Below, in pieces: positions 2,058-62,884 of a stretch of 64,000 bases of DNA. Within the stretch, counting starts at the first letter, position 1; each line of letters begins with the position of its first letter. The DNA is from Desulfobacteraceae bacterium Eth-SRB1 (lineage in GTDB: Bacteria; Desulfobacterota; Desulfobacteria; Desulfobacterales; ETH-SRB1). Below the pieces are notes generated by a model. That model worked only from the letters and a program-made list of their open reading frames with translations. It was not told where the DNA came from and searched no databases. The position numbers and the translations under genes are program-made. The stretch spans positions 65,127 through 129,126 of the forward strand of contig RPGP01000040.1 in NCBI GenBank assembly GCA_004193555.1, given 5' to 3'.

Positions 2058-2235
2058 GGATTCAAGGGGTCAAGGATTCGAGTAAAATACTTAAGAATAA
2101 CAAAAAGATTCCCCAAATAAGAAAGATACGATCTGACATCGCAAACAAGGATGGTAGCAATCTCTGTTCATAGTGAAGAAGGATATGGAAGAAAAACAAC
2201 CACTTGAATCCTTGAACCCTCGAATCCTCGAATCC
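2058..2235. repeat. Palindromic element with word-repeat arms inside the permease-thioredoxin gap
   Basis: GGATTCAAGGGGTCAAGGATTCGAG (2058-2082) versus CTTGAATCCTTGAACCCTCGAATCCTCGAATCC (2203-2235). Confidence 0.8.
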
Positions 2236-2293
2236 TTTGCATCAACAAATCGGAAGAAGAACCACAAACAATCTCGTAAAGGAGAAATTAAAT

Positions 2294-2527
2294 ATGATAA
2301 TTAAGGTATTAGGTCCGGGTTGTCCTAAATGTCAGGAGACTGAACAAATCGTCAGGCAAGTAGTTGCCGACTCCGGCGTGGATGCTTCGGTTGAAAAGGT
2401 GACCGATATCATGGAGATTGCCGGATATGGGGTCTTCGGAACGCCGGCCGTAGTGGTTGACGATCAGGTCAAGAGCGTCGGTAAAATTCCCGGCAAAGAT
2501 GAAATCAAGATCTGGATCAAACACTAA
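2294..2527 (+). CDS. Thioredoxin-fold protein, redox-active disulfide protein 2 family
   Basis: ATG 2294 preceded by AAGGAG. MIIKVLGPGCPKCQ... with a CPKC redox motif, 77 aa. The ORF-track start (TTG 2237) lies inside a repeat and is unlikely. Confidence 0.8.
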   Translation: MIIKVLGPGCPKCQETEQIVRQVVADSGVDASVEKVTDIMEIAGYGVFGTPAVVVDDQVKSVGKIPGKDEIKIWIKH

Positions 2528-2536
2528 AATTATTTT

Positions 2537-3139
2537 ATGGACAGGAAGCAATCATACGAAAACATGTCGGACGAGCAACTGGTACAGGTTTCGCTGGAAA
2601 ACCAGGATTGTTTCTATTACTTGATGAAAAAATATGAACCCAGGATACTGCGTTATATTAAGCGGCTGACAAATATCAGCCAGGATGAATCAGCAGATAT
2701 ACTTCAGGAAATATTTATCAAGGTATATCGCAACCTCAACGGCTTCAATCAGAAGTTGAAATTTTCAAGCTGGATTTATCGTATTGCTCATAATGAAATT
2801 ATTAATCAATACCATAAGAGAAAATCATATTCAGCAATGATCAATTTGAATATTAAAGATGATGATGTTAATAATATGGCCGAGCTTGTTTGCGATACAT
2901 TCGATGTTCAGGATGACTATATATTTAGAGAGAATACCGAAAAGGTAAGGGAGGCGCTCAAAGACCTTCCGGATAAATACCGCGAGATACTTATACTTCG
3001 CTTTCTTGAAGATAAAAGCTATGATGAAATCAGTCATATATTGCGCAAGCCCGCCGGTACTGTCGCAACCCTGATCAACCGCGCAAAATCAAAATTCAGG
3101 GAAATAGCGAAACATCATCAACTTGAAAGCCTGATATAA
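2537..3139 (+). CDS. ECF-type sigma-70 family RNA polymerase sigma factor
   Basis: Region 2 (FIKVYRNLNGF..WIYRIAHNEIINQY) and region 4 HTH (YDEISHILRKPAGTVATLINRAKSKF). Confidence 0.85.
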   Translation: MDRKQSYENMSDEQLVQVSLENQDCFYYLMKKYEPRILRYIKRLTNISQDESADILQEIFIKVYRNLNGFNQKLKFSSWIYRIAHNEIINQYHKRKSYSAMINLNIKDDDVNNMAELVCDTFDVQDDYIFRENTEKVREALKDLPDKYREILILRFLEDKSYDEISHILRKPAGTVATLINRAKSKFREIAKHHQLESLI

Positions 3140-3143
3140 AACT

Positions 3144-3884
3144 ATGAAAGACATAAGCAAAAATATCTTACAAAAAATCAAGGAAGATAAGGTGCGTCCA
3201 TATTCAAAAGGCCGTTTTCTGCTTAAGCGTTCTGTAATATGGACGGTATTCGGCATATCAATCCTGCTCGGAAGCGTTGCCAGCGCTATTGCAATATTTC
3301 AGTTAAAATACGCTGAATGGGATTTGTATCAACACCTCAGCCATAGACCGTTAGAGTTTGCGCTCCTGGTAATTCCATTTTTCTGGCTGATTTTTTTGCT
3401 GGGATTTGCAGGATTTGCCTATTATTACTTTCGGCGCACAGAGCAGGGATACCGTTATCGCACATTATGGGTAATCTCGGGAAGTATTGCTCTTTCAATT
3501 ATCTGTGGCGGGATTTTGTATGCAACCGGGTTGTCGGAAAGGCTGGAAACAGTATTTCAACATAATGTGCCATTTTATAGAGAACTGCAGGAACGGAAAC
3601 AAAGGGTATGGATGTCACCCGGGCAGGGGCTGCTTGCCGGAAAGATTGTCAAAATAATTTCTAAGCAAAAAATACAGATTGAAGATTTACAGAAGAATGT
3701 CTGGGTTGTTGATATAGGCGATACTATCTGGAAAGGCCGGCTTAGACCTGCAAAAAATCTAAAAATAAAGATCCTTGGAAATATGAAAGGAGAAAGTCAA
3801 TTTGTCGCAGATGAAATTCGGCCATTGCAGGGGCGAAAAGGTCGAGGCAGAATGCGGCATTTAAGGCATAAAAATAAAAAGTGA
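3144..3884 (+). CDS. Membrane protein, putative sigma-factor partner (anti-sigma-like by position only)
   Basis: Starts 5 nt after the sigma gene. Short cytoplasmic N-terminus (ILQKIKEDKVRPYSKGRFLLKR), about 4 TM helices and a basic soluble C-terminal domain. No recognisable zinc anti-sigma motif. Confidence 0.55.
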   Translation: MKDISKNILQKIKEDKVRPYSKGRFLLKRSVIWTVFGISILLGSVASAIAIFQLKYAEWDLYQHLSHRPLEFALLVIPFFWLIFLLGFAGFAYYYFRRTEQGYRYRTLWVISGSIALSIICGGILYATGLSERLETVFQHNVPFYRELQERKQRVWMSPGQGLLAGKIVKIISKQKIQIEDLQKNVWVVDIGDTIWKGRLRPAKNLKIKILGNMKGESQFVADEIRPLQGRKGRGRMRHLRHKNKK

Positions 3885-4323: not shown

Positions 4324-4380
4324 AGATATATAAAAGAAGCAGCCCTGTTACGATTTGTGGCAGGGCTGGTTTACAAAAAA

Positions 4381-4679
4381 ATGAACGTCCAACATCGAAC
4401 GTCCAACGTCGAACGTCGAACGTCGAATAATGATGTCGCTTCGCTTTTCAAATTATTTTAAAATCGAATAAAAAAACAAACATCCAATACCGAACATATT
4501 AAAAGATGAACGTCCAACATCGAACCACGCCTTGGCGTGGATGAAATCGCTGGGTTTATGCTGAGTAACCGAAGTGCTCCGCCAGTTTACAAATTGGCAG
4601 AATACCTTATTCAAAATTCGATGTTGGACGTTCGATGTTCGATGTTCATCTCTTTTCTCGTTCGATGTTCATCTTTTTT
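4381..4679. repeat. TTCGATG/TTGGACG-word element, two inverted copies around a 190-bp core
   Basis: ATGAACGTCCAACATCGAACGTCCAACGTCGAACGTCGAACGTCGAA (4381-4427) versus TTCGATGTTGGACGTTCGATGTTCGATGTTCAT (4617-4649). Extra partial copies at 4505-4525 and 4659-4679. Confidence 0.9.
4545..4579. repeat. 35-nt conserved block, copy 1
   Basis: AATCGCTGGGTTTATGCTGAGTAACCGAAGTGCTC. 33 of 35 positions identical to 26744-26778. Confidence 0.85.
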
Positions 4680-4683
4680 CAGT

Positions 4684-5773
4684 CTATGAAAGAAGCACTC
4701 TCTCAATAAAAGGATCAATCCCTCCATCCAGAACATTGTTTACATTGCCAACCTCAAGGTTTATCCTGTGATCCTTGACCATTTGATAAGGATGCAGGAC
4801 ATACGATCTGATCTGGCTGCCAAAGCCGATTTCATTTTTGCTGTCATGTATTTCTTGTAATTTTTCATCCTGCCTCTGCTTTTCAACCTGGTAAAGCCGG
4901 GATTTAAGCACCTTCATCGCCATTTCTTTGTTTCTGTGCTGGGATTTTTCCTGCTGGCACTGCACAACTATCTTGCTGGGAAGGTGAGTAATGCGGATAG
5001 CGCTGCTTGTTTTGTTAACATGTTGTCCTCCGGCTCCGCTGGCCCTGAAAACATCAATGCGCAGATCTTTATCATCAATTTCGACAACTATTTCTTTGTC
5101 CAGCTCAGGATAGACAAAAACGGAAGCAAAGGAAGTATGCCGCTTGCCGCTTGCATTAAAAGGTGAGATTCTTATCAGGCGGTGCACGCCTTTTTCAGTC
5201 TTTAAGTACCCGTAAGCATATTCTCCGCTTGCCGTGAAAGTAACACTTTTAATTCCCGCTTCATCGCCGGGCTGGAAATCGATTATTTTGACCTGATAGC
5301 CTTTGCGGTCGCTCCATCTTGTGTACATTCTAAAGAGCATTTCTGCCCAGTCCTGGGCTTCTGTGCCGCCTGCACCGGCATTTATGGAAATAATCGCATT
5401 GTTTTGATCATCCACGCCGTCAAGCATAAGGTCAAGTGAAAATTCATGTATTCTTTTATCAATGGCCTGAATCTGACCGGCTGCCTCTTCGATTGTATCG
5501 GCGTCTGATTCTTCCAGGGCAAGGTCGAGAAGTATTTTACTTTCTTCTAAATCATTATAGATATCTTTCCAGATTTTAATTTTTCCGGAAATTAAACTAC
5601 GTTCTTTTAATATATCCCTCGTTTCTTCAGGTTTGTCCCAGAATCCTTTTTTTGCGATTAATTGTTCGATTTCCTTTAATCTTTTTTCTTTTCCGGCAAG
5701 GTCAAAGACAACCTTTCAATTGTTCTAATTTCAGGAAAAGTTCATTAATGGTCTGATTAAGTTCTATAGACAT
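4684..5773 (-). CDS. prfB: Peptide chain release factor 2 (programmed +1 frameshift)
   Basis: Frame 0: ATG 5773, MSIELNQTINELFLKLEQLKGCL, then CTT TGA C at 5707-5701. The +1 frame continues DLAGKEKRLKEIE...MLDGVDDQNN into ORF 4684..5427, which carries AGGTEAQDW and the SPF and GGQ (GAGGQHVNK) motifs. Confidence 0.95.
5701..5709 (-). other. prfB +1 frameshift site (CTT TGA C)
   Basis: Minus strand reads GTCTTTGAC, with AAAGG a few nt upstream as a weak SD-like stimulator. Joining the two frames reconstitutes a full-length RF2. Confidence 0.9.
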
Positions 5774-5787
5774 ATTATTACCTCCAT

Positions 5788-6007
5788 GTTCAGGGGTTCA
5801 GGGTTCAGTATAATTTTAAGTTTTGAATTTTGAATGAAGGAAAAATCGTTTTTATACCAAATTGAGGAGCAAAGCGACATCATCATTCAAAATTCGATGT
5901 TGGACGTTCGATGTTCGACGTTCATCTTTTCAATGGTTCAATGGTTCAATGGTTCAAGGGTTCAGGAATTGAGGGTATCCTATTGATTTTAATCCCTTAA
6001 TCCCTTA
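5788..6007. repeat. Mosaic of word repeats between prfB and lnt
   Basis: (GGTTCAG)3 at 5788-5808. TTTTGAATTTTGAATGAAGG (5821-5840) pairing with TCATTCAAAATTCG (5883-5896). TTCGATG/TTGGACG words at 5893-5925. (CAATGGTT)4 at 5931-5966. TTAATCCC x2 at 5989-6007. Confidence 0.9.
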
Positions 6008-7576: not shown

Positions 7577-7649
7577 AAGGTGTTAAGTGTTAGGTGTTAG
7601 GTGTCAGGTATTTTATCTTAACACCTGATGAATTCGAGTTTTTTACGAA
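7577..7649. repeat. GGTGTTA-word array plus TAAAAAGT-type terminus, abutting the lnt start
   Basis: AAGGTGTTAAGTGTTAGGTGTTAGGTGTCAGGT ... CTTAACACCTGATGAATTCGAGTTTTTTACGAA. Confidence 0.85.
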
Positions 7650-7685
7650 TTTTTTAAAGATACAACATTCAGGAATAATTATCAA

Positions 7686-10491: not shown

Positions 10492-10628
10492 TTGATAAAT
10501 CCGTAAAAAGTCAAACACACCCCTTAATCGTCATTCCGGCGAAAGCCGGAATCCAGTTTTTTCAAGTAGTTGCAGATCATCTGGACTCCGGTTTTCACCG
10601 GAGTGACGACTTTTTACGAGTTCATCAA
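10492..10628 (+). repeat. TAAAAAGT-hairpin element with a 105-bp insert carrying two 8-bp stem/tetraloop hairpins
   Basis: Termini CCGTAAAAAGTC / GACTTTTTACGAGTTCATCAA. Internal ATTCCGGC-GAAA-GCCGGAAT (10533-10552) and ACTCCGGT-TTTC-ACCGGAGT (10585-10604). Confidence 0.9.
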
Positions 10629-11093: not shown

Positions 11094-11100
11094 TCAGAAG

Positions 11101-11139
11101 CCGTTCACGGCTTGAAACTTGAAATTGGAAAGTAGAAAT
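11101..11139 (+). repeat. 39-nt unit CCGTTCACGGCTTGAAACTTGAAATTGGAAAGTAGAAAT, copy 1
   Basis: Identical to 56746-56784. 38 of 39 positions match the reverse complement of 31766-31804. The 29-nt core recurs at 55680-55708. Confidence 0.9.
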
Positions 11140-11159
11140 TTGGTAGAAAAAGAAATGGG

Positions 11160-11298
11160 ATCAAGTCTACGTTTGACCCATGAGCAATCTATTTTCTCTT
11201 ATTTCAATAGGGCTTCTGATTTTTTATCTTTATTCTTAAGCTTCTATGCCCACTTGAATCTTGACTAATTAACAACAAGGGTCAAACGTAGACTTGAT
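11160..11298. repeat. Perfect 20-bp inverted repeat with 99-bp loop
   Basis: ATCAAGTCTACGTTTGACCC (11160-11179) / GGGTCAAACGTAGACTTGAT (11279-11298). Confidence 0.9.
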
Positions 11299-11360
11299 AA
11301 TCATATAAAGGGCTTAGTGTTGAGCTGGAGCAAAATCATCGCCAAGTGCTTTACTTTGTA

Positions 11361-11536
11361 GGTGCACGAGGCATACTCGTCAAGCGTGACATTTTCCTAC
11401 GGAACGCTTCGCTAAATGTCACTACAGCCTGACGAGTTTAAAATGAAATGACACCTCCCTAACCCTTAGCAAAAGGTGCTAAGGGTACCAGTACGTAAGT
11501 ACGTAACATTAATTTTATGGTTTTAGGAGGTGTCAT
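11361..11536 (+). ncRNA. Structured IS110 leader (candidate regulatory or bridge-RNA-like region)
   Basis: Stem/internal-loop/stem: ACTCGTCA-AGC-GTGACATTT (11375-11394) pairs with AAATGTCAC-TACAGCC-TGACGAGT (11414-11437). Hairpin CCCTTAGC/GCTAAGGG (11463-11485). Transcription not shown. Confidence 0.25.
11448..11536 (+). promoter_or_regulatory. Anti-SD pairing that can sequester the transposase RBS
   Basis: ATGACACCTCC (11448-11458) is the perfect reverse complement of GGAGGTGTCAT (11526-11536). The latter is the SD plus the bases abutting ATG 11537. Confidence 0.4.
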
Positions 11537-12445
11537 ATGGAAACATACGCTGGAATCGATTTACATTCAAGTAATAATTACATCGGTATTATCAATGAGC
11601 AAAATCAGAGACTTTATGGGAAACGGATACCAAACGAACTGGACAGAGTTTTGATGGCGCTGGAACCGTTTAAGGATACACTGAAAGGTGTAGTCGTAGA
11701 ATCAACATACAACTGGTACTGGCTGGTAGACGGTTTGCAGGAGCATGGATACAAATTGCATTTAGCTAATCCGGCAGCGATTAAGCAATACGAAGGTCTG
11801 AAACATACAGATGACAAATGGGACGCGTTCTGGCTGGCCCACTTGAAGCGTTTGGATATTTTGCCCGAAGGTTATATATATCCAAAAGAGGAACGTCCTG
11901 TAAGGGATTTGCTGCGCAGAAGGCTTTTGTTTGTTCAGCACAGCACATCCCACATTTTAAGTCTTCAAAGCATGATAACAAGGAATATTGGATTAAAGAT
12001 GTCCGGCAATGCGATAAAGAAGCTTAAAGAAGAAGAAGTTGAAGGAATGTTTGATTCTTCCAATCTGGTCTTTATGGCCCAAAATAATACAGCGACCATT
12101 CAGTTTTTAAAGAAAATAGTTAAGGATATTGAAAAACAAGTAAAATCCCAGGTAAAGCTTAGAAAAGAATTTAAGATGCTGCTGACGATCACGGGGATTG
12201 GGAATATTTTAGGACTTACCATAATGCTGGAAGTAGGAGACATAAACCGTTTTGCTGAAGTTGGAAACTATTCTTCATATTGCCGGTGTGTGAAAAGCGA
12301 GAGACTTTCTAATGGCAAGAAAAAAGGAGAGAACAACAAAAAGAACGGAAATAAATATTTATCCTGGGCATATGTAGAAGCAGCGAACTTTGCGATCAGG
12401 CATAGTGTAAAAGCACATAGTTTTTATCAACGTAAAAAAGCCTAA
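11537..12445 (+). CDS. IS110-family DEDD transposase, interrupted by an in-frame TAA (reading frame continues to 12553)
   Basis: AGIDLHS, VESTYNWYW and HTDDKWDA (DEDD N-domain). C-terminal LLTITGIGNILG...SERLSNGKKKG..KNGNKYLSWAY. After TAA 12443-12445 the same frame reads RNGIVAIKALANKICRASYYIMRDCVPFNEEMLFR*, the conserved family C-terminus. Confidence 0.85.
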   Translation: METYAGIDLHSSNNYIGIINEQNQRLYGKRIPNELDRVLMALEPFKDTLKGVVVESTYNWYWLVDGLQEHGYKLHLANPAAIKQYEGLKHTDDKWDAFWLAHLKRLDILPEGYIYPKEERPVRDLLRRRLLFVQHSTSHILSLQSMITRNIGLKMSGNAIKKLKEEEVEGMFDSSNLVFMAQNNTATIQFLKKIVKDIEKQVKSQVKLRKEFKMLLTITGIGNILGLTIMLEVGDINRFAEVGNYSSYCRCVKSERLSNGKKKGENNKKNGNKYLSWAYVEAANFAIRHSVKAHSFYQRKKA

Positions 12446-12803
12446 AGAAACGGTATAGTTGCAATTAAAGCATTAGCCAATAAGATTTGCAGGGCATCCT
12501 ATTACATCATGCGTGATTGTGTGCCCTTTAATGAAGAGATGCTTTTTCGTTAATCAGTTTGGGTGCGGCAGTGAACCGGTAATGGGCCGTGCTTTAAGCA
12601 TTGCGCTTAAAATACAATTGCCTTGAACCTGATGGGTGACTGGTGCGGATCAGCTTGGGCTGACTGCTAACCTATGAAAAGAAATAAACGGGTGCGAAAA
12701 AAGGTGATAAAGCGAGGCTGTGCTGTGGCGAAAGTAAGAGGACAAGCAAAAAAGGATGTATTTTTTTTAAGGGAGAGGTGTTTTTTTTCTTGACAGGCCC
12801 TTT

Positions 12804-12826
12804 AATGGGTGACCCCATTTTTTTTT
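12804..12826 (+). terminator. Intrinsic-terminator-like hairpin plus T-run at the IS right side
   Basis: AATGGG-TGAC-CCCATT followed by T8 (12818-12826). Confidence 0.45.
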
Positions 12827-12836
12827 ACCAGCGACT

Positions 12837-13480
12837 TGTTATACGATTTCATTGAATGACTATTACAATTAGGTGTTGCTGCATTTCTTTACTACCCTCA
12901 TTCCACATACCATCCCATGCAACCTGAACAGTAAGAGTATTGGACTCTGCCGAATCAGAGACCGCTTTGAATCTCATACGAATTGGTTCGTTTGGTGGGA
13001 AAGTGGGATCTAAATTATTTGGGCACCAGTATAGCTGGAGAGCAAAACGTTTTGCATCCTCAACAACGAAACCGAAAGTCGACATTTCATCAGGTCCGAT
13101 TGTTGTATATGCGGGAGTGATGTTTGGCCATTTCCATGTAACGTGAACTGGGCCACTGAAAACGATAGGCCTCCAGTTTCCATCTGGGCCTTGCTTGATA
13201 ATCTCTATAAGAAGTACTCTGACATTCTTTGCAGGAGACGACTGTCGTTCGTTTATAACATCAAGACTATAGTATCTTGCTTTTTTCCCATCGCCTCGGG
13301 TGGTAAATGATCCTTGAGGATCGGCGAGAGATATTTTTAGCTTCGGTTTAGTCCACCACTGGCGTATACGTTCGCCCCATAAGGCAACTATTACTGCCAT
13401 AAAAGTTACGGAAGATCCAAGGATTCCAACAAGTAAACTATACTTTTCATAATCAGTCATAATTTATCTCTCGTATAACA
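12837..13480. repeat. Perfect 10-bp inverted repeat bracketing the orphan ORF
   Basis: TGTTATACGA (12837-12846) and TCGTATAACA (13471-13480). On the minus strand these read GTTATAC upstream of the ORF and GTATAAC downstream, resembling integron core and inverse-core sites. Confidence 0.7.
12849..13460 (-). CDS. Orphan membrane-anchored protein, function unknown (cassette-like ORF)
   Basis: 203 aa. One N-terminal TM helix (LLVGILGSSVTFMAVIVALW) then a beta-rich domain. Flanked by a perfect 10-bp inverted repeat and AT-rich DNA. No family recognised. Confidence 0.6.
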   Translation of the reverse strand: MTDYEKYSLLVGILGSSVTFMAVIVALWGERIRQWWTKPKLKISLADPQGSFTTRGDGKKARYYSLDVINERQSSPAKNVRVLLIEIIKQGPDGNWRPIVFSGPVHVTWKWPNITPAYTTIGPDEMSTFGFVVEDAKRFALQLYWCPNNLDPTFPPNEPIRMRFKAVSDSAESNTLTVQVAWDGMWNEGSKEMQQHLIVIVIQ

Positions 13481-13490
13481 TAGATTAAAC

Positions 13491-13642
13491 GGCCTAATAG
13501 CCGTAGTTAATTACGGCTATTCGCCGCTACAAAGTTAAAGAATATAAACAATACAGCGTGTTAGTATTCATCTTTGTTTTATATTGAAATGTGAAATACG
13601 GCTAAACAGCCGCCTATTTCTAATACGCGGCTGTTTTGCCGT
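13491..13642. repeat. Two imperfect hairpins sharing an ACGGCTA core (attI/attC-like region)
   Basis: GGCCTAATAGCCGTA/TACGGCTATTCGCC (13491-13525, one bulged base). ACGGCTAAACAGCCGC/GCGGCTGTTTTGCCGT (13598-13642, one mismatch). Confidence 0.55.
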
Positions 13643-13854
13643 CTATCACTTTTTTTATAATTTATCTAACATTATGATATTACAATAAATACAATACGCT
13701 CAAGGTGTATATTGAGATTGAAAATGCGCATAAAAGTATAAAAAAGTGTTGCATTAAATATTTTGTATGTTAATTAAAAACAACATGACAGATGTTTCAT
13801 AAATAGAACTGAAATAATTTCCCATATTACTAATAGGTTGTCAATTATTTAAAG

Positions 13855-14013
13855 TTGATGGCGTCGTAAAAAGTCTCACTTCGGTGAAAACCGTTGTCCA
13901 GAAAATATGTAAACATTTTATATAACTGGATAGCGCAAAATGCTTCACTACGTGCCCGGCTTTCGCCGGAATGACGGAAAGGGGAATTTTCCGACTTTTT
14001 ACAAGTTCATCAA
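13855..14013 (-). repeat. TAAAAAGT-hairpin element, inverted and diverged homolog of 10492-10628
   Basis: TTGATGGCGTCGTAAAAAGTC...CCCGGCTTTCGCCGGAATGACG...CCGACTTTTTACAAGTTCATCAA. Sits immediately upstream of the intI remnant. Confidence 0.85.
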
Positions 14014-14044
14014 AGTTTATTGATAGTGATAAAAGGAACCAAAG

Positions 14045-14401
14045 ATGAAACTATTAGATCAGGTACGTAACGTTATAAGAAAAAAGCATTATTCAATCCG
14101 TACAGAACAGGCATATACAGATTGGATCAAAAGATTTATACTGTTCCATGGAAAAAAACACCCCAAAGATATGGGGGAGAGTGAGATTTCAAAGTATATA
14201 TCATACCTTGCCGTAAAGAGAAATGTTGCTGCGAGCACCCAGAATCAGGCCCTCAATGCCATTGTTTTTCTTTATAAACAGGTATTGAATAGAGAACTGG
14301 GTGACTTCGGGAGTATGGAAAGGGCCAAAAGATCTAAAGGCGGCATGGGAGTTAAAAGTCCACTGGATATGGTCGAGCAGGGGGAATTAAGAGGAAGATA
14401 A
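14045..14401 (+). pseudogene. Integron-integrase (IntI-like) remnant with internal deletion
   Basis: N-terminal SAM-like domain (HYSIRTEQAYTDWIKRFILFHGKKHP...STQNQALNAIVFLYKQVL...RAKRSK) is joined directly to the extreme C-terminal motif GGMGVKSPLD. The entire catalytic domain is missing. Confidence 0.7.
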
Positions 14402-14403
14402 TC

Positions 14404-15054
14404 ATGAAATTTGATATATTTATCAGGCGTGTTTTTGAAGCCCTTAAAATATCGTCTCAGAACAGGCTTGCAATACTCCTTGGGATCAACAGGGCCGGAA
14501 TTACGCAGGCCAAAAAGAAGGGAACTGTTCCTGACAGGTGGATCCTGGACCTTTACAGGAAATATGGCATAAACCCTGACTGGATTGAGACCGGCAAGGG
14601 AAAAATGTTTATCGCGGAAAGGAATGGCAGCGTTGTTGTTCCTGAATATAAGAGCGCCCCCCATGTAAAAGCCAGGCTTTGCGCTGGTGACGGATCTTTT
14701 GAAGTTGATGAAAATATCAGTGATTACTGGATGTTCAGGGCCGACTGGCTCAAGCGTAAAGGATCGCCTTCACATATGATCCTTATCGATATCTATGGAA
14801 ACAGCATGGAGCCTGCGCTAAAAGATGGAGATACAGTCCTGATTGATACATCCGGAAAGGATATACTGGCAGGATCAATATATGCCGTGGGTATTGACGA
14901 TACAATCATGGTTAAAAGAATAGAGAAGCATCCGGGCAAACTGGTTCTTATGAGCGACAATAAAGATTATGAACCCGTTTATTTGAGTCAGTATGAGATG
15001 AACAGCGTTCGCATCATCGGAAAAGTTGTATGGATATCGAGAGATGTGAGATAA
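14404..15054 (+). CDS. Phage CI/LexA-like repressor (HTH + S24 peptidase)
   Basis: N-terminal CI-type HTH (QNRLAILLGINRAGITQAKKKGTVPDRW). C-terminal S24 domain with GNSMEP (Ser) and VKRIEK (Lys). Starts 2 nt after the intI remnant stop. Confidence 0.8.
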   Translation: MKFDIFIRRVFEALKISSQNRLAILLGINRAGITQAKKKGTVPDRWILDLYRKYGINPDWIETGKGKMFIAERNGSVVVPEYKSAPHVKARLCAGDGSFEVDENISDYWMFRADWLKRKGSPSHMILIDIYGNSMEPALKDGDTVLIDTSGKDILAGSIYAVGIDDTIMVKRIEKHPGKLVLMSDNKDYEPVYLSQYEMNSVRIIGKVVWISRDVR

Positions 15055-15438: not shown

Positions 15439-15439
15439 T

Positions 15440-46410: not shown

Positions 46411-46416
46411 ATACTA

Positions 46417-46845: not shown

Positions 46846-46867
46846 TATTCCCCCTTTGAAATCTTTG

Positions 46868-46905: not shown

Positions 46906-46988
46906 AAATTTTAATCCTCGAAATATTCAATATATTCCTCTGGTTAAAATTTTCGCCTTCCTTGAGCTTGAACAAAATGGAGCATTTT

Positions 46989-49175: not shown

Positions 49176-51765
49176 TGTCTTCCAGAAATTTCTTCTTGTA
49201 ATAAGCTGTTTTTGCGGCGTTGCCCATTATCATATCCAGTTGCCTTGTATGCATTGTAAGATAACCAATTGCTTTAAGACGTTTTAATATGGAAAATTGA
49301 TCATATGCCGCAATAGCTGCATTCATATAATCTTCATATATTTCAACCTGAAAATCATATTTGACCAGGATGTCTTCTATAAGCTTCATCCTGCGGAATT
49401 TTCTGTTATGATCTGCAGCGCCACCCTTAAAATAAAATTTTATGTAATTCTCTCCGGGTTTGTCGCTGACAAAGGTCTGCACAACCGAATAATGATAGCC
49501 GAACCGGCAGCTGAGATTGCAAAAGTTTTTTGAAATAATAGCGCAGTCGTTTTGCGCATAACTGGACTTGCTTGATGCGCACAGATCACGATTCATAGTA
49601 GATTCAACCATGATGGAAAGAAACCCCTTGGTATCTACTGAAGGCGGGCCGTCCCATTCTACCTCGGTCATTCCCTCCCAGAGGGCCATCATCGGAACTG
49701 ATGCTATATTTTCAAGTTTTACAGTATCTTTTCCCATTGATCCTTTTAAGCCATCGCCCAGGTCAACGATCCACCACTGCGCTGGAACATCATTTATAAT
49801 CAGTCTTTTCCCTGCCTTGATTCCTTTGCTGTTTCTGCCGGAATCAAACATTTCTTTTACAGCCTTTTCGTGGCAGAACCGGGTGACGTCGTGATATGTA
49901 TGGCAGCCATCAGGCGTAAAATTATCGCCTTTTGGATCAATGAGATTCAGCGGGGTGATATGCTTTAGCGTTCTTTTAAGCGTTATATAAACAGGGCTCC
50001 CTTTAATTCTGCTGATGCCCCCTGCAGGCGACTCTCTTAATAATGCTTCGGCCTTTCCTTCATAGACTTTTCGCGCATAGGTATCAACTGTGATTATTGT
50101 TCCATTTTTAATTTTGTCGGTAGCTGCAAGCGTATCAAAAAGCGCCGGGATGCCGAATTCTCTTGTAACTGTGGCTAAATGACCGGCAATTCCCCCGCGG
50201 TCGGTTACCACCGCAACAGCCTTGTTCAGTATTGTGGCCCACTGAGGCAAAGAGTTTTTTGTCACCAAAACAGCGCCCGCAGGAAATTTGTAAATTTCTT
50301 CGGCAGAGTTCACAATAAATGCAGGCCCGCAGGCCACACCCGGGCTTGCCGCAACTCCTCCATTTAGTATCATACGATTATTAACTTTTATAGCTGATGT
50401 ATCTTTAAATTCATTATCTTCTTTTCTTAACTGTTTCAGTGGACGGCTCTGGAGTATCCTGATCAGGCCGTCCTTTTCTATAGCCCATTCGATGTCTTGA
50501 GGAGTTTTAAAATGATTTTCAAGGATAACTGCCTGTTTTGCCAGAAACTGCGCCTGTGCATCCGTGATGGCCGGCGCATATTTCTCCTGCTCAGGCAATT
50601 CGCTGATGTGCAGTTCTTTGTTGGAGAAAATTAAAATTCCCTGATCTTTGGCATGAATCTCTTTTTTAAGGATTTGAACAGGTTGTTCCCTGGAGACTGC
50701 AAATACGTCGGGTGATATGCTTCCCTCAACCACTGATTTTCCTAATCCAAAAACCGCATTTATGAATATCTGATTGTTGTGAATGTCACCGGGATCTTTC
50801 GAATACATAACGCCGCTGGAGACAGCTTCAACCATGGCCATGCAACCGACGCACATCATAACATCTTCATCGCTAAAACCCTTGTTAAAACGGTATGTAA
50901 TGGCCTGAAGGGAATACTTGCCGGCAAGAATTTTTTTATAAGAGTGAATCAGTGTTTTAAAGCTGACATTCAGTTCTGTGTGATATTGACCTGCAAAAGA
51001 GGATTCCCGGCTGTCTTCACCTAAGGCGCTGCTGCGCATTGATACTTTGACGTTTTTTTCTGTTTTTTCTTCCAGGGTTCTGTATTCATCAAATATTGCC
51101 GCTTCAAGTTCCGGAGGAACCGGTGATTGCATGATAAGCTCTTGTATATTTGAGCTGGCCATTCCCAGCATTTTTATATCTTCAATATCAACAGATTGAA
51201 GCTGCTGGTTGATTTTTTTTTGAAGGTCGCCGTGATTCAGAAACAAATGATACGCAGAGGCGGTAATAACAAAACCTTGCGGAACGTTAAGGTCTGTCAG
51301 GTTCATAATTTCGCCCAGATTAGCCATTTTACTGCCGGTATGGTCTGCGCTGTCTTTATTTATCTCTTCGATTGACAGTACCGGTTTACCCTCAATCGAC
51401 TTTTCTCTTTCTTCCAGTGTTTGATTTATTTTATATTGAATATCAGCTAAAGCATAATAGAGCTTTTCATAACGACAGCCTGAAATCTCGTTTATTTTTT
51501 CAATTAGTTGATATATATTTACTGAAATGGATGTGCAGTGTGCACGAATGAATTCCATACCGAATTTATGGTCTCCGCGAAGCGCCAGTTCCATCTCTGA
51601 CATGATCTCAAGTATTGCACTGTTTATGCTTAGAAAACTTTTAAAGTTCCAGTACTTGGTTTTGAAACGGGAACGGCTGGCATCATCTGACAATTCTTCA
51701 GGATTAGGGCTTTCCTGGTTTTTTACGCAAAATATTTTTTTTATTGCCTGCCTTAATCCAAACAT
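49144..51765 (-). CDS. Atypical PEP-utilising enzyme (ATP-grasp PPDK_N-like + phosphohistidine swivel + novel C-terminal domain)
   Basis: Swivel-domain motif TDRGGIAGHLATVTREFGIPA in mid-protein, followed by about 300 aa unlike the PpsA/PPDK TIM barrel. Start reassigned to ATG 51765 (GGAG 5 nt upstream) because the ORF-track ATG 51837 overlaps a sigma54-type promoter. Confidence 0.7.
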   Translation of the reverse strand: MFGLRQAIKKIFCVKNQESPNPEELSDDASRSRFKTKYWNFKSFLSINSAILEIMSEMELALRGDHKFGMEFIRAHCTSISVNIYQLIEKINEISGCRYEKLYYALADIQYKINQTLEEREKSIEGKPVLSIEEINKDSADHTGSKMANLGEIMNLTDLNVPQGFVITASAYHLFLNHGDLQKKINQQLQSVDIEDIKMLGMASSNIQELIMQSPVPPELEAAIFDEYRTLEEKTEKNVKVSMRSSALGEDSRESSFAGQYHTELNVSFKTLIHSYKKILAGKYSLQAITYRFNKGFSDEDVMMCVGCMAMVEAVSSGVMYSKDPGDIHNNQIFINAVFGLGKSVVEGSISPDVFAVSREQPVQILKKEIHAKDQGILIFSNKELHISELPEQEKYAPAITDAQAQFLAKQAVILENHFKTPQDIEWAIEKDGLIRILQSRPLKQLRKEDNEFKDTSAIKVNNRMILNGGVAASPGVACGPAFIVNSAEEIYKFPAGAVLVTKNSLPQWATILNKAVAVVTDRGGIAGHLATVTREFGIPALFDTLAATDKIKNGTIITVDTYARKVYEGKAEALLRESPAGGISRIKGSPVYITLKRTLKHITPLNLIDPKGDNFTPDGCHTYHDVTRFCHEKAVKEMFDSGRNSKGIKAGKRLIINDVPAQWWIVDLGDGLKGSMGKDTVKLENIASVPMMALWEGMTEVEWDGPPSVDTKGFLSIMVESTMNRDLCASSKSSYAQNDCAIISKNFCNLSCRFGYHYSVVQTFVSDKPGENYIKFYFKGGAADHNRKFRRMKLIEDILVKYDFQVEIYEDYMNAAIAAYDQFSILKRLKAIGYLTMHTRQLDMIMGNAAKTAYYKKKFLEDISLWFQQDPR

Positions 51766-51820
51766 AATTACTCCGAATTTCAGTTCATTAATCTTGAGCA
51801 TAGATATTGCATAAATTACA

Positions 51821-51836
51821 GTCAAGAAACGTGCCA
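51821..51836 (-). promoter_or_regulatory. Sigma54-type -24/-12 promoter candidate for the PEP-utilising enzyme gene
   Basis: Minus strand reads TGGCACGTTTCTTGAC. This matches TGGCACG-N4-TTGC except that the C of the -12 GC is an A. Confidence 0.5.
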
Positions 51837-51900
51837 TATCAAAATATCCATAAATTGATGATAGTTATATTTATACGGCAGGCGGGCAGGTCCAAGGATG

Positions 51901-52036: not shown

Positions 52037-52378
52037 GAATTATTTACTCAAGTTTCGCACCCTTTAATTTATCCAAAGCGTTAGACGGTAAGGGCTAAAA
52101 ATAAATTTTAAAGCGAAATATACTGCCTGTGGTTTTTACAACGGCGCCAATCAATAACTATAAGATTGATGCCTGACACTTTATTAAATTCAATAAGTTA
52201 TATCTCCTTTGCGCCTGTCTGCGTGCGGTTACGCACAGGCAGGCCTGATCATAATCTATGTTGCACTTAGATGTTGTTTACAAAATATAAGCAAATGATT
52301 TCGCTGTAAAAATGTTATTTTCAACCCTTACCGTCTTGATATTGATAGAAATCAAGGGTGCGAAACTTGAATTATTTA
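52037..52378. repeat. Pair of inverted ~82-nt modules flanking a 177-bp spacer
   Basis: 52037-52119 versus the reverse complement of 52297-52378. Shared blocks: TCAAGTTTCGCACCCTT, GACGGTAAGGG, AAAATAA, AGCGAAAT. The spacer carries the hairpin TGCGT-GCGGTT-ACGCA. Confidence 0.7.
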
Positions 52379-52404
52379 TTTTTAATTGACAGTATCATTA
52401 TAAT

Positions 52405-52452
52405 TTGATGAATTCGTAAAAAGTGGTTTTCCCACTTTTTACGAGTGCATTA
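52405..52452. repeat. TAAAAAGT-hairpin element (minimal form)
   Basis: TTGATGAATTCGTAAAAAGTGG-TTTTC-CCACTTTTTACGAGTGCATTA. Confidence 0.8.
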
Positions 52453-52497
52453 TAATTTGATTAGCCTTTTTTATAAATTTATAATCAGGAGTGGACA

Positions 52498-53758: not shown

Positions 53759-53785
53759 ATGTAATAACAAGGAGATTGACTATTT

Positions 53786-55603: not shown

Positions 55604-55620
55604 TCAGGATATAAACGTTT

Positions 55621-55808
55621 ACAGTTCACGGTTAAAATGCTTCAGGTGTTACATAGCTCGTAACCCCGCCGTGGCGGGGCTTGAAACTTGAAATTGGAAA
55701 GTAGAAATTGGGAAAAACAGTACAAAAACATGAAGGCCAAATTTCCAATTTCTAATTTCAATGTTCCGTGAACGCTTAGTATAGTTCATTGAAAAAAGTG
55801 TGAACTGT
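55621..55808. repeat. Nested palindromic element containing the 29-nt CTTGAAA-word core (39-nt unit, copy 3)
   Basis: Outer ACAGTTCAC/GTGAACTGT (55621-55629 / 55800-55808). Core CTTGAAACTTGAAATTGGAAAGTAGAAAT (55680-55708) faces the partly complementary CCAAATTTCCAATTTCTAATTTCAATG (55737-55763). Confidence 0.85.
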
Positions 55809-56745: not shown

Positions 56746-56784
56746 CCGTTCACGGCTTGAAACTTGAAATTGGAAAGTAGAAAT
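56746..56784 (+). repeat. 39-nt unit, copy 4 (44 nt upstream of the response-regulator ATG)
   Basis: CCGTTCACGGCTTGAAACTTGAAATTGGAAAGTAGAAAT, identical to copy 1. Confidence 0.9.
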
Positions 56785-56827
56785 ATAGGGAGAAGGGCGC
56801 TAATTTAATATCTATGAGGAGGTAAAA

Positions 56828-60302: not shown

Positions 60303-61525
60303 CTAAAACTGCGGCTCATACTCCGGCACGATCTCCTGCAATTTCGTCTTTATGCCTTTTGCATCCTGATTTTCGGCAAGGCGGCATGAAAAATTATCTG
60401 AGGTTTATAAGCTCCGATCGCCTTTTCAAGCTCATGTTTATCCTGAATGTCCGCCAGCAAAGGCACAACTGTTACATTGCTGAAACTCTGTTTAAGCTCC
60501 AGTTCGATTTCATACAATGGGCTTTCTGCTATCTCGTAAAGCACAACCAGTTCCGGTCGAAACCGGCAGATCTGCCTGCAGAGTTCGGAACCGATAGAAC
60601 CGCCCGCGCCGGTTATCATGACACGCCGCCTCTTGATGTGTGAGCCTATCTCTTCTTCGTCCAGCACGACTGCTTCCCGTCCCAGCAGGTCTCTGTAGGC
60701 CACCTCTCGGATCGCATTTATTGTCACCCTGCCGTCAATCAGCTCTCCCATGCCGGGCATGGTCTTAAATGTAATGCCGCTTTCCTTGCAATGAGTCACA
60801 ATGGTTCGCATTTGCTTTGATGTGGCTGACGAAATCGCTATAAGGATTTCATCAACCCTTGCCTGCCTTGCAACCGCTTTGATATCTTTTATGCAGCCAA
60901 GCACTGGAATACCGTGGATCTTTTTCCCAAGCTTTACCGGATTATCGTCAAGGAATCCGACCACATTATACTTAAGCCGCGCATTATCCCTTAATTCTCT
61001 GAATATTTTTTCTGCGCAGTCGCCGGCGCCGACAATAAGCAGCCTCTTTCTGCCCTGTACCTTTTTTACAAAGGGACTCAAAAGAATCTGTTTTACAACT
61101 TTCCAGAATTCATCATGGCCGAAGTATTCAAAATACAAGCGGACGCTCAGTCTGAATGCGGAAATAAAAAAAATCGTGAAACACCAGTCAATAACAAAAA
61201 CCGAACGGGCAAAGCCTTCGAACCTGGTTTTAAAAAGAATAACACTGATAATAAGGAGAGAGGCTATGGTTGATGCCTTGATGATATTTATCATATCGGC
61301 GATGCTTGTATAGCGCCACATGCCGCGATAAAGATCGAAGAAATAAAAACAGACAAACTTGGTTATCAATACAAAAGGCAATATCTTCTTAAAAGTCTGC
61401 AGCTCAATGCCGTCAATCATAAAATCAAATCGCACGAGGTAGGCGGCATACAAAGAGCCTGTTAAAAGAAGAATATCTATCGCCAGAATAATAAAGAAGT
61501 TTTTATAAAGCGGTTTGATTTTCAT
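60303..61525 (-). pseudogene. CapD/WbpM-type polysaccharide biosynthesis dehydratase with large internal deletion and frameshift
   Basis: Intact N-terminal TM region and first Rossmann motif (ITGAGGSIGSEL) up to ...IIFHAA, then a stop. A different frame just downstream reads ...LQEIVPEYEPQF*, resembling the family C-terminus. About 250 codons are missing. Confidence 0.6.
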
Positions 61526-61552
61526 GGTTTTTATTTACCGCAAAGCCACTTC

Positions 61553-61946
61553 CTCACGCAAAGGCGCAAAGGCGCTAAAAATATAATTTTGAGTTTTTAA
61601 TTTTGAATTTTGAATGAAGGAAAAAAGTCCGATTTTAATTGAAGCTCCCCGCCGCAAGCAGCGCGGAATGCGCTCACTATTCAGTTCAAATAGCCTAACA
61701 GCCTTCAGCCTAATAAGCTAATCCCTAAATTCTCAATCCTTAAATTCCTTCAACTCAAAATTCAAAATTATCTCTCCATTCCCAATTCCCTGTTTTTCAT
61801 TCGACGTTGGACGTTCGATGTTGGACGTTCATCTTTTCTATTCCCTCTGTTTTTTCCCTTCGACATTCTGCGGTTCATTATTCTGCGGTTCTGCGGTTTT
61901 CTGATCCTCTATCCTATTTTCTCTCCCCTTAGCGCCTTTGCGTGAG
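61553..61946. repeat. 394-bp composite bounded by GCAAAGGC-word inverted repeats
   Basis: CTCACGCAAAGGCGCAAAGGCGCTAA (61553-61578) / TTAGCGCCTTTGCGTGAG (61929-61946). The interior carries TTTTGAATTTTGAATGAAGG, TTCGACG/TTGGACG words (61798-61830), (TTCTGCGG)n and AATCCCT words. A third arm copy lies at 62749-62764. Confidence 0.9.
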
Positions 61947-61979
61947 CCAACTCTTAGCACTTAACACCTTACACTTCAA

Positions 61980-62744
61980 CTATATCTGCCCCCTAATCCA
62001 TGCCCAGGCCAAACCCAGGTATTCATAAAATACCCTCTCCATCTTGCGAAGACTATCGGCATTGGGAAAGAAAATATGCGGGCTGATCCCCTGGCTTTCT
62101 TTAATTAGATAATCTGTAGGAGCCGGTATCGGCTTCATGCCCAGTTTTTGGAAAAGAGCTATCGAACGTGGCATATGCGAAGCAGATGTTACTAATATGA
62201 ACCTTTCATCTCCAACTATTTTATGGATTAACCGTGCCTGATCCTTAGTGTCTTTTGAAAGCTCCTCTAAAACAATCCTGTTATCCCCTACCCTCATAAT
62301 CTTAGCCACGTCCGCCATTACCACGGCATTAGATACCGGATCATACACCCCGCTGCCTGATAATATTAACTTGCTTGCCGGAAGTTTTTTGTGAATTCTA
62401 ACCCCTTCCAGCAAGCGGGAAAGAGAGGAATTCCCTATCTGGCCGGTTACAGGTAACTTTGGGTCTGAATTATGGCCGCCACCCAGAACAACCACCCATT
62501 TAACATCGGAAAATGTCTGCAGCTCAACAAGAGGAGGATATTTATATTCCAGGGGTTTCAAACAAATATCCGCTATACTCCCGTAGCTGAATAGAGCCAG
62601 CAAAACAACGCCTGCAAAGACAAGCATCTTCCCGGTCTTTTGCCTGCGGGTAAACCACAGCAGGAAAACCCCAGCTATCAATATTTCAAGAATAATCGAT
62701 AAAGGAAACAATAACGGCGCTACTATTTTCTTAAATAAAAACAT
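61980..62744 (-). CDS. DUF218/YdcF(ElyC)-family protein
   Basis: N-terminal TM helices, then VVVLGGG...SG...VTSA.HM.R pattern. ATG 62744 preferred over GTG 62753, which lies in a repeat arm. Confidence 0.75.
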   Translation of the reverse strand: MFLFKKIVAPLLFPLSIILEILIAGVFLLWFTRRQKTGKMLVFAGVVLLALFSYGSIADICLKPLEYKYPPLVELQTFSDVKWVVVLGGGHNSDPKLPVTGQIGNSSLSRLLEGVRIHKKLPASKLILSGSGVYDPVSNAVVMADVAKIMRVGDNRIVLEELSKDTKDQARLIHKIVGDERFILVTSASHMPRSIALFQKLGMKPIPAPTDYLIKESQGISPHIFFPNADSLRKMERVFYEYLGLAWAWIRGQI

Positions 62745-62884
62745 TTCACTCACGCAAAGGCGCCAAGAGACCTTTAAAAAATGCTTCCGCCAGAGTGCTA
62801 AGGTCTCACACGGAGGAATACATTGAGTATTTCGAGGATTGACCCATTTTATTAAGAACGGGTGAGCCTGACCCCCGTTTTTTG

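Follow-up and report, generated by a model that had tools for sequence, protein, structure and literature searches.

What are the tandem seven-nucleotide words that fill the spaces between genes in a sulfate-reducing bacterium, and how did they come to be arranged as hairpins? We addressed this question in a 64,000-nt stretch of Desulfobacteraceae bacterium Eth-SRB1 (contig RPGP01000040.1, positions 65,127 to 129,126; the whole stretch is called the window here, and coordinates count from its first letter). The host is a deltaproteobacterial sulfate reducer, which we take to come from an ethane-oxidising enrichment. An earlier examination of the letters (the sequence-only reading) had described an intergenic space dominated by mosaic palindromes with word-repeat arms. 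Our analysis suggests that several families of small, non-coding, hairpin-forming dispersed repeats colonise the intergenic DNA of Eth-SRB1. One of them, the family at 55660-55782 (F5), is an internal-deletion derivative of a cassette that encodes a four-helix-bundle protein. The probable source of at least one family of the window repeats, and by inference of most that have word arms, is a mobile mini-cassette of the type known as the 23S rRNA intervening sequence (IVS).

Tandem words of period 7 are concentrated between genes. Tandem Repeats Finder (TRF) returned 64 rows for the window, 32 of them with a period of 7, 14 or 21, and the concatenated intergenic DNA (10.2 kb) yielded 43 arrays, 26 of the period-7 family. 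Thirty dinucleotide shuffles served as the null for intergenic arrays and gave means of 2.5 arrays in all and 0.33 of the period-7 family, an enrichment of about 80-fold for the latter. Period-7 arrays cover 6.2% of intergenic bases versus 0.24% of coding bases, and dimers of the word RGTGTYA were observed 21 times against 0.01 expected. About ten different words are present. Runs of words form inverted pairs at 32002-32026/32053-32077, 4375-4420/4610-4655, 35316-35365/35513-35562 and 2057-2083/2202-2228, and again at 43258/43319, 46304/46389, 55688/55737 and 61583/61755; many gaps fold much more stably than their shuffles, with z between -5 and -12.

We counted 42 gaps of at least 30 nt from their sequences and folds. 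Some member of the repeat repertoire occupies about 26 of them: about 12 gaps hold hairpins with word-repeat arms, about 9 only direct arrays or single arms, and about 6 palindromes without word repeats. The sequence-only reading had placed word-armed hairpins in at least 25 gaps, a number that suits repeat modules of any kind and is about twice what word-repeat arms account for. Several of its other observations were borne out. A tandem-repeat search of the window confirmed the period-7 arrays, and the longest of these (40430-40527, 14.0 copies, 0% indels by TRF) has the exact 7-nt phase over 14 units that it had described. The nesting it reported at 31973-32124, 44754-44904, 55621-55808 and 61553-61946 is visible in the sequence, and elements do occur in both orientations and within operons, including the Wood-Ljungdahl operon.

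The elements are dispersed repeats: they are multicopy, they are gained, lost, replaced and nested, and their length shifts by seven nucleotides at a time. The comparison loci L001, L002, L004, L015 and L016 carry exact matches of 16-58 nt to window elements at places that are not orthologous, as even Desulfonatronovibrio contigs do. Word variants follow one another in the same order in dispersed copies, as in the 32-nt stretch of 5899-5930 that recurs in L015. Orthologous spacers differ accordingly in content. The spacer at 55604-55799 is 196 nt long in the window versus 12-50 nt in L001, L003 and L009, and in L006 it holds a different array. The 27-nt spacer at 53759-53785 is enlarged in L001, L005 and L006 by a GGCTGAA-armed hairpin, missing from the window, that has a conserved core of about 110 nt and a variable number of arm units.

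Turnover is most readily followed around lnt in L015 and L016, relatives whose Lnt falls in the same 90%-identity cluster as that of the window. The GGTGTTA (TAACACC) array before lnt holds its position, with 4.6 units in the window, 2 in L015 and 3 in L016. In L015 the prfB-lnt spacer consists of a GTTCACR array alone; in the window a nested element interrupts this array, and in L016 an unrelated CACAAAG hairpin takes its place. A CACAGAG hairpin that is complete in L015 is represented in the window by one retained arm. The alignment of related strains called for by the sequence-only reading revealed presence and absence at orthologous sites; the target duplications that it had also envisaged were not seen, and inspection of the flanks of F5 copies and of copies with CGTAAAAAGT termini found no target-site duplication.

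The family F5 connects these repeats to a gene. Its unit, AGCCGTTCACGGCT followed by CTTGAAA CTTGAAA TTGGAAA GTAGAAA, occurs at 11099, 56746, 31806 (reverse complement) and 55676, and at 55660-55782 it forms one half of a palindrome. A scan of metagenome contigs with the centre of this palindrome retrieved at least 120 stretches, representing at least 113 distinct copies, and among the matches listed all copies share the inverted termini GTAGCCGTTCACGGCT... and ...GTTCCGTGAACGCTTAC. Arm lengths fall into 7-nt classes (left arm 22, 29, 36 nt and up; right arm 13, 20 and 27 nt), a single residue class accounting for 34 of 51 left arms and 44 of 51 right arms. The longest copies carry GGGAGAG-ATG and an open reading frame (ORF) of 117 codons between the arms. 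This ORF ends in ...AACAGTACAAAAGCATGA, and the "centre" used for the search is therefore the end of a gene; the centre ACAGTACAAAAACATGA of the window copy consists of the last codons and stop of a lost four-helix-bundle ORF. The encoded protein matches PF05635, "23S rRNA-intervening sequence protein" (E 7e-21), and TIGR02436, "four helix bundle protein" (E 6.7e-21), a family that resembles Avd, the accessory protein of diversity-generating retroelements (PMC10053308).

A full cassette spans about 500 nt and comprises a word array, a Shine-Dalgarno (SD) element, the 117-aa ORF and an inverse word array. Graded internal deletions bridge full cassettes and ORF-less palindromes and the ORF end persists in the centre; thus the window copy is a derivative of the cassette, much as a MITE (miniature inverted-repeat transposable element) derives from its parent. 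In predicted folds the arms pair in the window copy, and the arrays of full cassettes form a terminal stem around the ORF. The complementary, long-stem termini of an IVS are thereby present in both; the PF05635 ORF within the stem is present in full-length F5 relatives, and window copies hold its last codons only. No recognisable transposase is encoded by the parent cassette, whose ORF is PF05635. In L026 an element with CGTAAAAAGT termini has inserted into an F5 arm.

The association of this protein family with word arrays extends well beyond the sulfate reducers. Homologues of the F5 protein with 72-95% identity are found in metagenome-assembled genomes (MAGs) of Bacteroidales, Saprospiraceae, Marinimicrobia, Verrucomicrobiota, Planctomycetes and Thermodesulfobacteriota, and at the four homologue loci inspected, one from each of the first four groups, GAAATTN words stand upstream and NAATTTC words downstream of the gene. 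Other subfamilies have other arms: GGTTCAG/CTGAACC in L035 and L161-L170, the first of these words being also present at 5788-5808 of the window, and GTTAGCC/GCTAACC in L057, a type of which a deletion derivative is nested in a GTTCACG hairpin in L100. A tblastn search of PLSDB found homologues on 27 plasmids, nearly all cyanobacterial. Inverted word arrays bracket 11 of the 16 cyanobacterial plasmid homologues examined, and an array is present on at least one side of 14; among the five without an inverted pair, one has direct arrays, two have one-sided or non-complementary arrays and two have none. The Nostoc punctiforme plasmid gene reads (TCAGGAG)n-ATG...(CTCCTGA)n, and further inverted pairs flank the genes of N. 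edaphicum (GGGAGTA/TACTCCC), Calothrix (GGGTGTA/TACACCC) and Anabaena 90 (ACAGGTG/CACCTGT). For comparison, a 50-kb portion of one Nostoc plasmid with 59 genes contains only 6 period-7 arrays. These plasmid data suggest that the short tandemly repeated repetitive (STRR) sequences of cyanobacteria may likewise be tied to a gene cassette. Searches with two subfamily queries returned 1,262 and 6,242 four-helix-bundle relatives, many of them on short contigs, a pattern typical of repeats. When 1.2 Mb of loci were searched by regular expression for complete cassettes armed with the other words of the window, only short ORF-less pairs were found.

Several features of these genes were noted alongside. 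L161-L170 represent one locus (DUF72, four-helix-bundle gene, dinB) from ten metagenome samples, where the distance from the upstream gene to the four-helix-bundle ATG takes at least six values; deletions between GGTTCAG-like words distinguish the variants, and the ORF and downstream arm are identical. The stop codon often lies within the first downstream word (CTCCTGA, CCTGAAC; L137-L143, L155, L161), and annotated protein lengths range from 126 to 154 aa within one subfamily, which together suggest that array changes alter the C-terminus. Three of the 16 cyanobacterial genes sit inside CRISPR-Cas loci (L148, L149, L151): between cas6 and cas4 in Pseudanabaena galeata, beside cas4 in Anabaena sp. 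90, and between cas10/cmr2 and cmr3 in Picosynechococcus PCC 7003. Protein clusters at 90% identity or above (P0039, P0157, P0165) combine Patescibacteria, Marinimicrobia, Armatimonadota, Calditrichales, Desulfobacteraceae (including Eth-SRB2) and Ca. Desulfaltia, and many of their members are truncated to 48-104 aa. Such mixed-phylum clusters reflect either horizontal transfer in the very recent past or multicopy repeat contigs that were binned wrongly.

We compared the window elements with systems already described. The closest precedent is the 23S IVS, of the Leptospira, Coxiella, Xanthomonas and Brucella type. That of Coxiella burnetii is 428 nt long with a 28-bp terminal stem and a decaying S23p ORF, which is preceded by 2-3 tandem GACAGAT heptamers in strain-variable number; RNase III cuts the stem at the first repeat, and S23p-type IVSs are regarded as selfish (PMC4990558). 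The likeness lies in the inverted termini, in the long stem around a PF05635 ORF, and in tandem heptamers of variable copy number just before an ORF that is prone to decay or deletion. Unlike IVSs, the elements here sit in the intergenic spacers of protein operons and not in helix 25 or 45 of 23S rRNA; their window copies have no ORF, their arms are nearly all word repeats, they are multicopy and nested, and RNase III comes in by analogy.

STRR sequences offer a second parallel. Tandem heptanucleotides of several word families, in intergenic DNA, are what the window contains, and STRRs too sometimes form hairpins between co-transcribed genes. The words CCCCAGT, TTGGTCA and CAACAGT were reportedly described by Mazel in 1990; the window words differ from these, the host is deltaproteobacterial and not cyanobacterial, and the arrays here can be tied to a gene cassette. 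Two further heptamer sets have been reported. Xanthomonas GGGAATC arrays form 70-75 convergent inverted pairs with no mobile-element link found (PMC4692102), and TAACTGA repeats precede start codons that lack a canonical SD in Beggiatoaceae, Cyanobacteria and Bacteroidetes, where horizontal spread was suspected and no vehicle proposed (PMC4679880). The window resembles both in its intergenic heptamer arrays, often directly 5' of start codons, and in its inverted pairs. Tandem TAACTGA is absent from the window, which has only 8 singletons; other words take up the corresponding position before lnt, folE2, prfB and a thioredoxin-like gene. The patchy phylogenetic distribution of these sets suggests horizontal spread. 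They differ in that their genomes are described as dominated by one word, compared with about ten words here, and neither paper links its arrays to four-helix-bundle genes (PMC4679880, PMC4692102). With MITEs the elements share short length, lack of coding capacity, inverted termini, multiple copies in both orientations, presence/absence polymorphism and an origin by internal deletion of a longer coding element; they depart from MITEs in having a four-helix-bundle protein and not a transposase as parent, no target-site duplication, and termini made of word arrays of variable length.

The components belong to known kinds (IVS, STRR, REP and MITE, the REP class being treated below). The sequence-only reading had invoked STRR heptamers and REP/BIME mosaics, and both analogies are apt, as is its modular, nested picture. 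Its view that the combination is undescribed is only partly right and does not hold as stated, given the hairpin-forming intergenic STRR heptamers between co-transcribed genes of filamentous cyanobacteria (PMC2670836), the Xanthomonas inverted pairs (PMC4692102) and the heptamers of the Coxiella IVS (PMC4990558). Within an incomplete coverage of the literature, we found no report that links heptamer repeats to Desulfobacterales, and none that links heptamer arrays to four-helix-bundle genes beyond the Coxiella IVS (PMC4990558). Novelty may lie in the unifying link and in the presence of such repeats in Desulfobacterales.

We propose the following course of events. The founding cassette would consist of a run of 7-nt words, a ribosome-binding site, an ORF of about 117-135 aa of the PF05635/TIGR02436 ("S23p", Avd-like) family and an inverse run of the same words, and its arms could therefore pair into a long stem around the ORF. 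Internal deletion would remove the ORF and leave MITE-like palindromes of arm, core and arm; further loss would reduce an element to a solo arm, which appears as a direct array. Arm length would shift by 7 nt when words slip or recombine with one another, and insertion of elements into one another would build the mosaics. Stems transcribed within operons would be cut by RNase III, with the element excised or the transcript split, so that the element could reside in operons or rRNA at low cost to the host. By analogy with F5, the other word families of the window may share this cassette origin, and the solo arrays may be its remnants.

Our confidence in the general claim stops at probable because its basis is one window family together with an analogy across phyla, and a number of observations weigh against extending it. 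The direct tie to the cassette is confined to F5, with one palindromic and three half copies; GGTGTTA, GAACGTC, GCCTAAAGT, CTACTGC, CACAGAG, CACAAAG, GCAAAGGC and TTCTGCGG are linked by analogy, and an "ILPIYKLAE"-like stretch in the GAACGTC family is too short for testing. No intact four-helix-bundle gene is present in the window, and a profile of the cassette protein found no significant ORF remnant in the window or in L001-L016. With neither transposase nor target-site duplication, the term "mobile" describes a distribution; movement may have proceeded by RAYT-type transposition (see below), by recombination between arrays or by an RNA route. The taxonomic labels of repeat-bearing MAG contigs may stem from mis-binning. 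Finally, a Pseudanabaena gene is flanked by direct, not inverted, arrays of nearly the same word, which would fit insertion into a pre-existing array.

A distinct set of hairpins belongs to the REP (repetitive extragenic palindromic) elements. The sequence-only reading had noted an 8-bp stem with a GAAA loop at 10533-10552; the stem is confirmed, and lies within CGTC, ATTCCGGC, GAAA, GCCGGAAT and CCAG at 10529-10557, with an inverted partner of the same layout at 10581-10609. The CGTC-1 REP class, which includes Neisseria dRS3, is defined by hairpins that have an 8-bp stem beginning with AT and a loop of 4 nt, lie between a CGTC tag and a CCA tail, and form head-to-head dimers (PMC3733652). 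Judged by tag, stem, loop and tail, the GAAA-tetraloop hairpins and their partner appear to match this catalogued class, in the form of a stem starting AT or AC and a CCA(G) tail, although the lineage of this host is not among the carriers reported in the survey (PMC3733652). This goes part of the way to the refutation that the sequence-only reading had itself named, a match to a catalogued family. The match is limited to one module of the window, and the word-armed elements are not REPs; the mosaic, nested arrangement of the window as a whole recalls bacterial interspersed mosaic elements (BIMEs). CGTC dimers are enclosed in elements with TTGATGAAnnCGTAAAAAGT inverted termini. The window holds two dimers in 64 kb, with degenerate hairpin copies at 13876-13900 and 13955-13980, and the module is also found in L002, L010 and L011. 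Two inverted REPs forming a hairpin, the mark of a REP doublet (REPIN), are seen in the CGTC dimers and equally in the F5 termini GTAGCCGTTCACGG... and ...CCGTGAACGCTTAC. None of the 57 window ORFs scanned is a cognate REP-associated tyrosine transposase (RAYT). The CGTC-1 REPs and the elements with CGTAAAAAGT termini are separate, additional families nested in the same space. As a side observation, the REP module GTCATTCCGGCGAAAGCCGGAATCCAG translates to VIPAKAGIQ, a peptide motif met repeatedly among the spurious "hypothetical proteins" of many genomes; ORFs that span REP repeats may thus be products of automated annotation.

Could such transposition account for the word-armed elements as well? 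REPs or REPINs would then be moved by a RAYT, an IS200/IS605-like tyrosine transposase acting on single-stranded hairpins, and the four-helix-bundle ORF would be cargo or coincidence. F5 termini begin with GTAG or GTAAG and contain a small hairpin, a head-to-head CGTC-1 dimer is at hand, the lack of target duplications is what IS200/IS605-type transposition predicts, and half copies coexist with doublets like REP singlets and REPINs (PMC3116915). Yet neither a RAYT nor a Y1 transposase was found among the scanned ORFs, the versions from Bacteroidales, Marinimicrobia, Saprospiraceae and Verrucomicrobiota have word arrays only and no REP-like terminal hairpin, and CGTC REPs have no known dedicated transposase (PMC3733652); we judge this explanation improbable. 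The arrays might also be ordinary STRR microsatellites that arose by slippage at each locus, with hairpins formed by chance or local inverted duplication and no mobile parent. Slippage would account for arm lengths and orthologous arrays that vary by whole units, for population samples that differ by deletions between words, for the direct-only arrays at 40425-40551, 44162-44225 and 22363-22395, and for the lone window arm where L015 has a complete CACAGAG hairpin. It does not account for word-variant orders, unique cores and termini that recur at non-orthologous sites and in other genomes, for the many distinct F5 copies with common termini, or for arms that travel with a specific ORF across phyla. 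As a sole explanation slippage is largely refuted, and we give this account little chance. Least probable, in our estimate, is that word arrays are pre-existing landing pads into which four-helix-bundle cassettes, like other small elements, insert by preference. Inverted arms cannot result from insertion into a direct array, the same protein subfamily retains the same words across phyla, and the first downstream word often includes the stop codon, even though the GGTTCAG array is split by a nested element in the window and intact in L015, the Pseudanabaena gene lies between direct arrays, and an F5 arm in L026 has itself received an element.

A role selected by the host at the RNA level, as stabilisers, processing sites, insulators or translation control by a heptamer-reading protein, deserves more attention. 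Elements occupy the highly conserved Wood-Ljungdahl operon, and arrays directly adjoin the lnt, folE2 and prfB start codons without an SD, (UAACACC)n standing immediately before the lnt and folE2 AUGs with the lnt position kept in L015 and L016; such arrays could conceivably influence translation. Roles of this kind have been proposed for TAACTGA (PMC4679880) and Nostoc heptamers (bioRxiv 10.1101/2022.06.06.494920), and RNase III provides a precedent (PMC4990558). In 21 of 27 co-oriented gaps the sense strand has a more stable fold than its antisense counterpart, a bias to which we attach little weight because strand base composition can produce it. Conversely, arm mismatches oriented to the sense strand show no asymmetry (12 G.T vs 13 A.C), leaving no strand-specific RNA signature in the window arms. 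Both orientations occur, elements are replaced wholesale between relatives as close as L015 and L016, and they are missing from orthologous spacers of relatives that retain the same genes. Rfam gave no match in the window at gathering thresholds, and the window contains no rRNA. Intrinsic terminators were considered and rejected: terminator-like sites are not enriched (14 vs 17.6 expected), and no U-tracts follow the operon hairpins. We consider host selection unlikely as the explanation of the elements. The RNA-level role that the sequence-only reading had proposed thus keeps its plausibility through the IVS and RNase III precedent, and finds no strand asymmetry, terminator enrichment or, in the database search that it had recommended, Rfam match. 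If the elements derive from an IVS-type cassette, as we favour, their stems are probably RNase III substrates, as in the Coxiella IVS.

The elements of the window are as follows. A hairpin with GGATTCAAGG / CTTGAATCC word arms (2057-2237; arms 2057-2083 and 2202-2237) adjoins with its right arm the start of a thioredoxin-like ORF. The composite GAACGTC element (4375-4680) has GAACRTC / TTSGAYG heptamer arms, conserved ends AAAAGATGAAC...GTTCATCTTTT and an extra inner arm at 4486-4525; a solo end of this family, TTGGACGTTCGATGTTCATTTTT, lies at 19784-19812 (+). At 5785-5971, the GGTTCAG direct array that adjoins the prfB start is interrupted by a nested AATTTTG/TTCGATG element (5808-5928), and an array of 4.5 copies of TTCAATGG comes next; L015 has the array uninterrupted. 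Directly 5' of the lnt ATG stands (TAACACC)x4.6 with a partial palindrome (7577-7660, minus strand), and (TAACACC)x4.3 occupies the entire spacer to the folE2 ATG (22363-22395, minus strand); a (TAACACY)x9 direct array is found at 44162-44225 (+). The same word, as GGTGTTA, arms a hairpin (32002-32082) between two mini-palindromes in the composite at 31972-32124, whose reverse complement is the copy at 44757-44903.

An element with inverted termini of the form TTGATRAAnnCGTAAAAAGTC (10492-10628) surrounds the REP dimer at 10529-10557 and 10581-10609; a second CGTAAAAAGT-termini element (13855-14013) has its inner REP dimer in the opposite orientation, and another (25488-25614), common to L002, L015 and L016, follows large palindromes without word repeats (25181-25482) in the region 25181-25614. 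The F5 half copies are a left end at 11099-11140 (+; AGCCGTTCACGGCT, then CTTGAAA/TTGGAAA/GTAGAAA heptamers), a reversed copy at 31757-31806 (-) and one at 56746-56790 (+) that is not in the orthologous spacers of L001, L003 and L009. The F5 palindrome (55660-55782, +) runs in the order hairpin, NTNGAAA heptamers, centre, ATTTCNA heptamers and GTTCCGTGAACGCTTA, within an outer 9-nt inverted repeat at 55621 and 55800. A single arm of the GCCTAAAGT family stands with a GCACCGAAGGTGC hairpin at 23532-23596. Two complete GCCTAAAGT-armed hairpins lie in the Wood-Ljungdahl operon: one with inner CTTCGG/CCGAAG hairpins (35316-35563) occupies the whole acsC-acsE spacer and has a copy at a non-orthologous site in L015, and the other (36985-37222) lies in the acsB-acsC spacer. 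In the same operon, the folD-cdhD spacer has the direct array (YTACYGC)x14 (40425-40551, +), in exact 7-nt phase and without an inverted partner, and a CACAGAG-word hairpin (43258-43337) followed by half a CGTAAAAAGT terminus lies 5' of fhs (43258-43365). The CACAAAG-word hairpin at 46299-46415, with inner GCGCCCTTCGGGCGGGC, has a 33-nt arm in common with L001, and the same type substitutes for another element in L016. An inverted-repeat element of about 330 nt with TCAAGTTTCGCACCCTT termini, present in two copies in L015, is accompanied by a mini-palindrome at 52397-52461 (region 52044-52461). The nested composite at 61553-61979 combines outer GCAAAGGC arms and inner AATTTTG arms with a TTCGACG/TTGGACG array, a TTCTGCGG array and a terminal TAACACY run.

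The genes around these elements are housekeeping genes, in DNA of about 41% G+C. The Wood-Ljungdahl operon, on the minus strand, comprises acsE (34411-35295), acsC (35562-36911), acsB (37228-39432), cdhD (39436-40392), folD (40520-41425) and fhs (41440-43203). An 897-aa phosphoenolpyruvate (PEP)-utilising enzyme (49144-51837, minus strand) has its nearest homologues in Desulfobacterales MAGs, with 91% identity in Ca. Desulfaltia bathyphila and 75-82% in Eth-SRB1-like genomes and those of seep sulfate-reducing bacteria. Nine of ten window proteins are exactly matched by Eth-SRB1 proteins encoded on a 1.33-Mb contig (RZB29638-RZB29685). These relationships speak against a heterocystous cyanobacterium, which base composition and heptamers alone might suggest.

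Two stretches within the range of the repeats are coding and not intergenic. At 4684-5790 (-), an RF-2-like gene with PCRF and RF-1 domains runs upstream beyond the listed 247-aa ORF, and the additional 360 nt or so are kept at nucleotide level in L015 and L016. It looks like prfB with a programmed +1 frameshift, and 5428-5790 would therefore be coding sequence upstream of the frameshift. The period-9 array at 23141-23206 (-) is an in-frame repeat of six copies of TCCTTCTCT at the 3' end of rpoZ; it encodes the C-terminal tail of a 117-residue RpoZ whose RNA_pol_Rpb6 domain spans 43-93, and is unrelated to the intergenic elements.

Other mobile-element features were recorded in passing. An IS110-family transposase gene (DEDD_Tnp_IS110 and Transposase_20 domains) lies at 11537-12445, within a region (11094-12445) whose upstream part, directly after an F5 half copy, is non-coding and strongly structured, 11160-11182 and 11276-11298 forming an inverted repeat. 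This stretch could be the home of a guide (bridge-type) RNA, and the small repeats may be targets of the transposase. The gene-poor stretch that follows (12446-15054) contains a near-perfect 32-nt hairpin (13587-13653), a phage integrase fragment with the N-terminal SAM-like domain only (14045-14401) and a CI/LexA-like S24 peptidase repressor (14404-15054), and is possibly the remnant of an integrated element. A motif of about 25-30 nt without word repeat, ctttgcaaaacgcccccttttgcccaatctc, precedes two small minus-strand ORFs (20085-20125, 46860-46926) and recurs in L002 (5-29, 7520-7548).

What do these repeats mean beyond this genome? Heptamer tandem repeats are over-represented in many bacterial genomes and have been reported as STRR, TAACTGA and GGGAATC without origin or mechanism, and stand-alone "four helix bundle protein" genes are extremely common and unexplained. 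Linking the two suggests a model in which the arms of a small, selfish cassette consist of word repeats and pair into a stem that RNase III can cleave. Such a model would explain hairpins within operons, rapid turnover between strains, 7-nt length polymorphism, breaks in MAG assemblies and a patchy distribution across phyla. More speculatively, and only as a tentative proposal, heptamer arrays across bacteria (STRR, TAACTGA, GGGAATC and the window words) might for the most part represent arms and leftovers of a single class of IVS-like cassettes that spans phyla and encodes Avd-like four-helix-bundle proteins, with each protein recognising its own array and an RNase III-excisable stem permitting life in essential transcripts, both rRNA and operons. 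If true, this would give a common origin to a repeat class unexplained since 1990 and a role to the very abundant stand-alone PF05635 genes. The elements also fragment metagenome assemblies and generate spurious ORFs, and in the sulfate reducers that live in syntrophy with alkane-oxidising archaea they likely influence how mRNA is processed.

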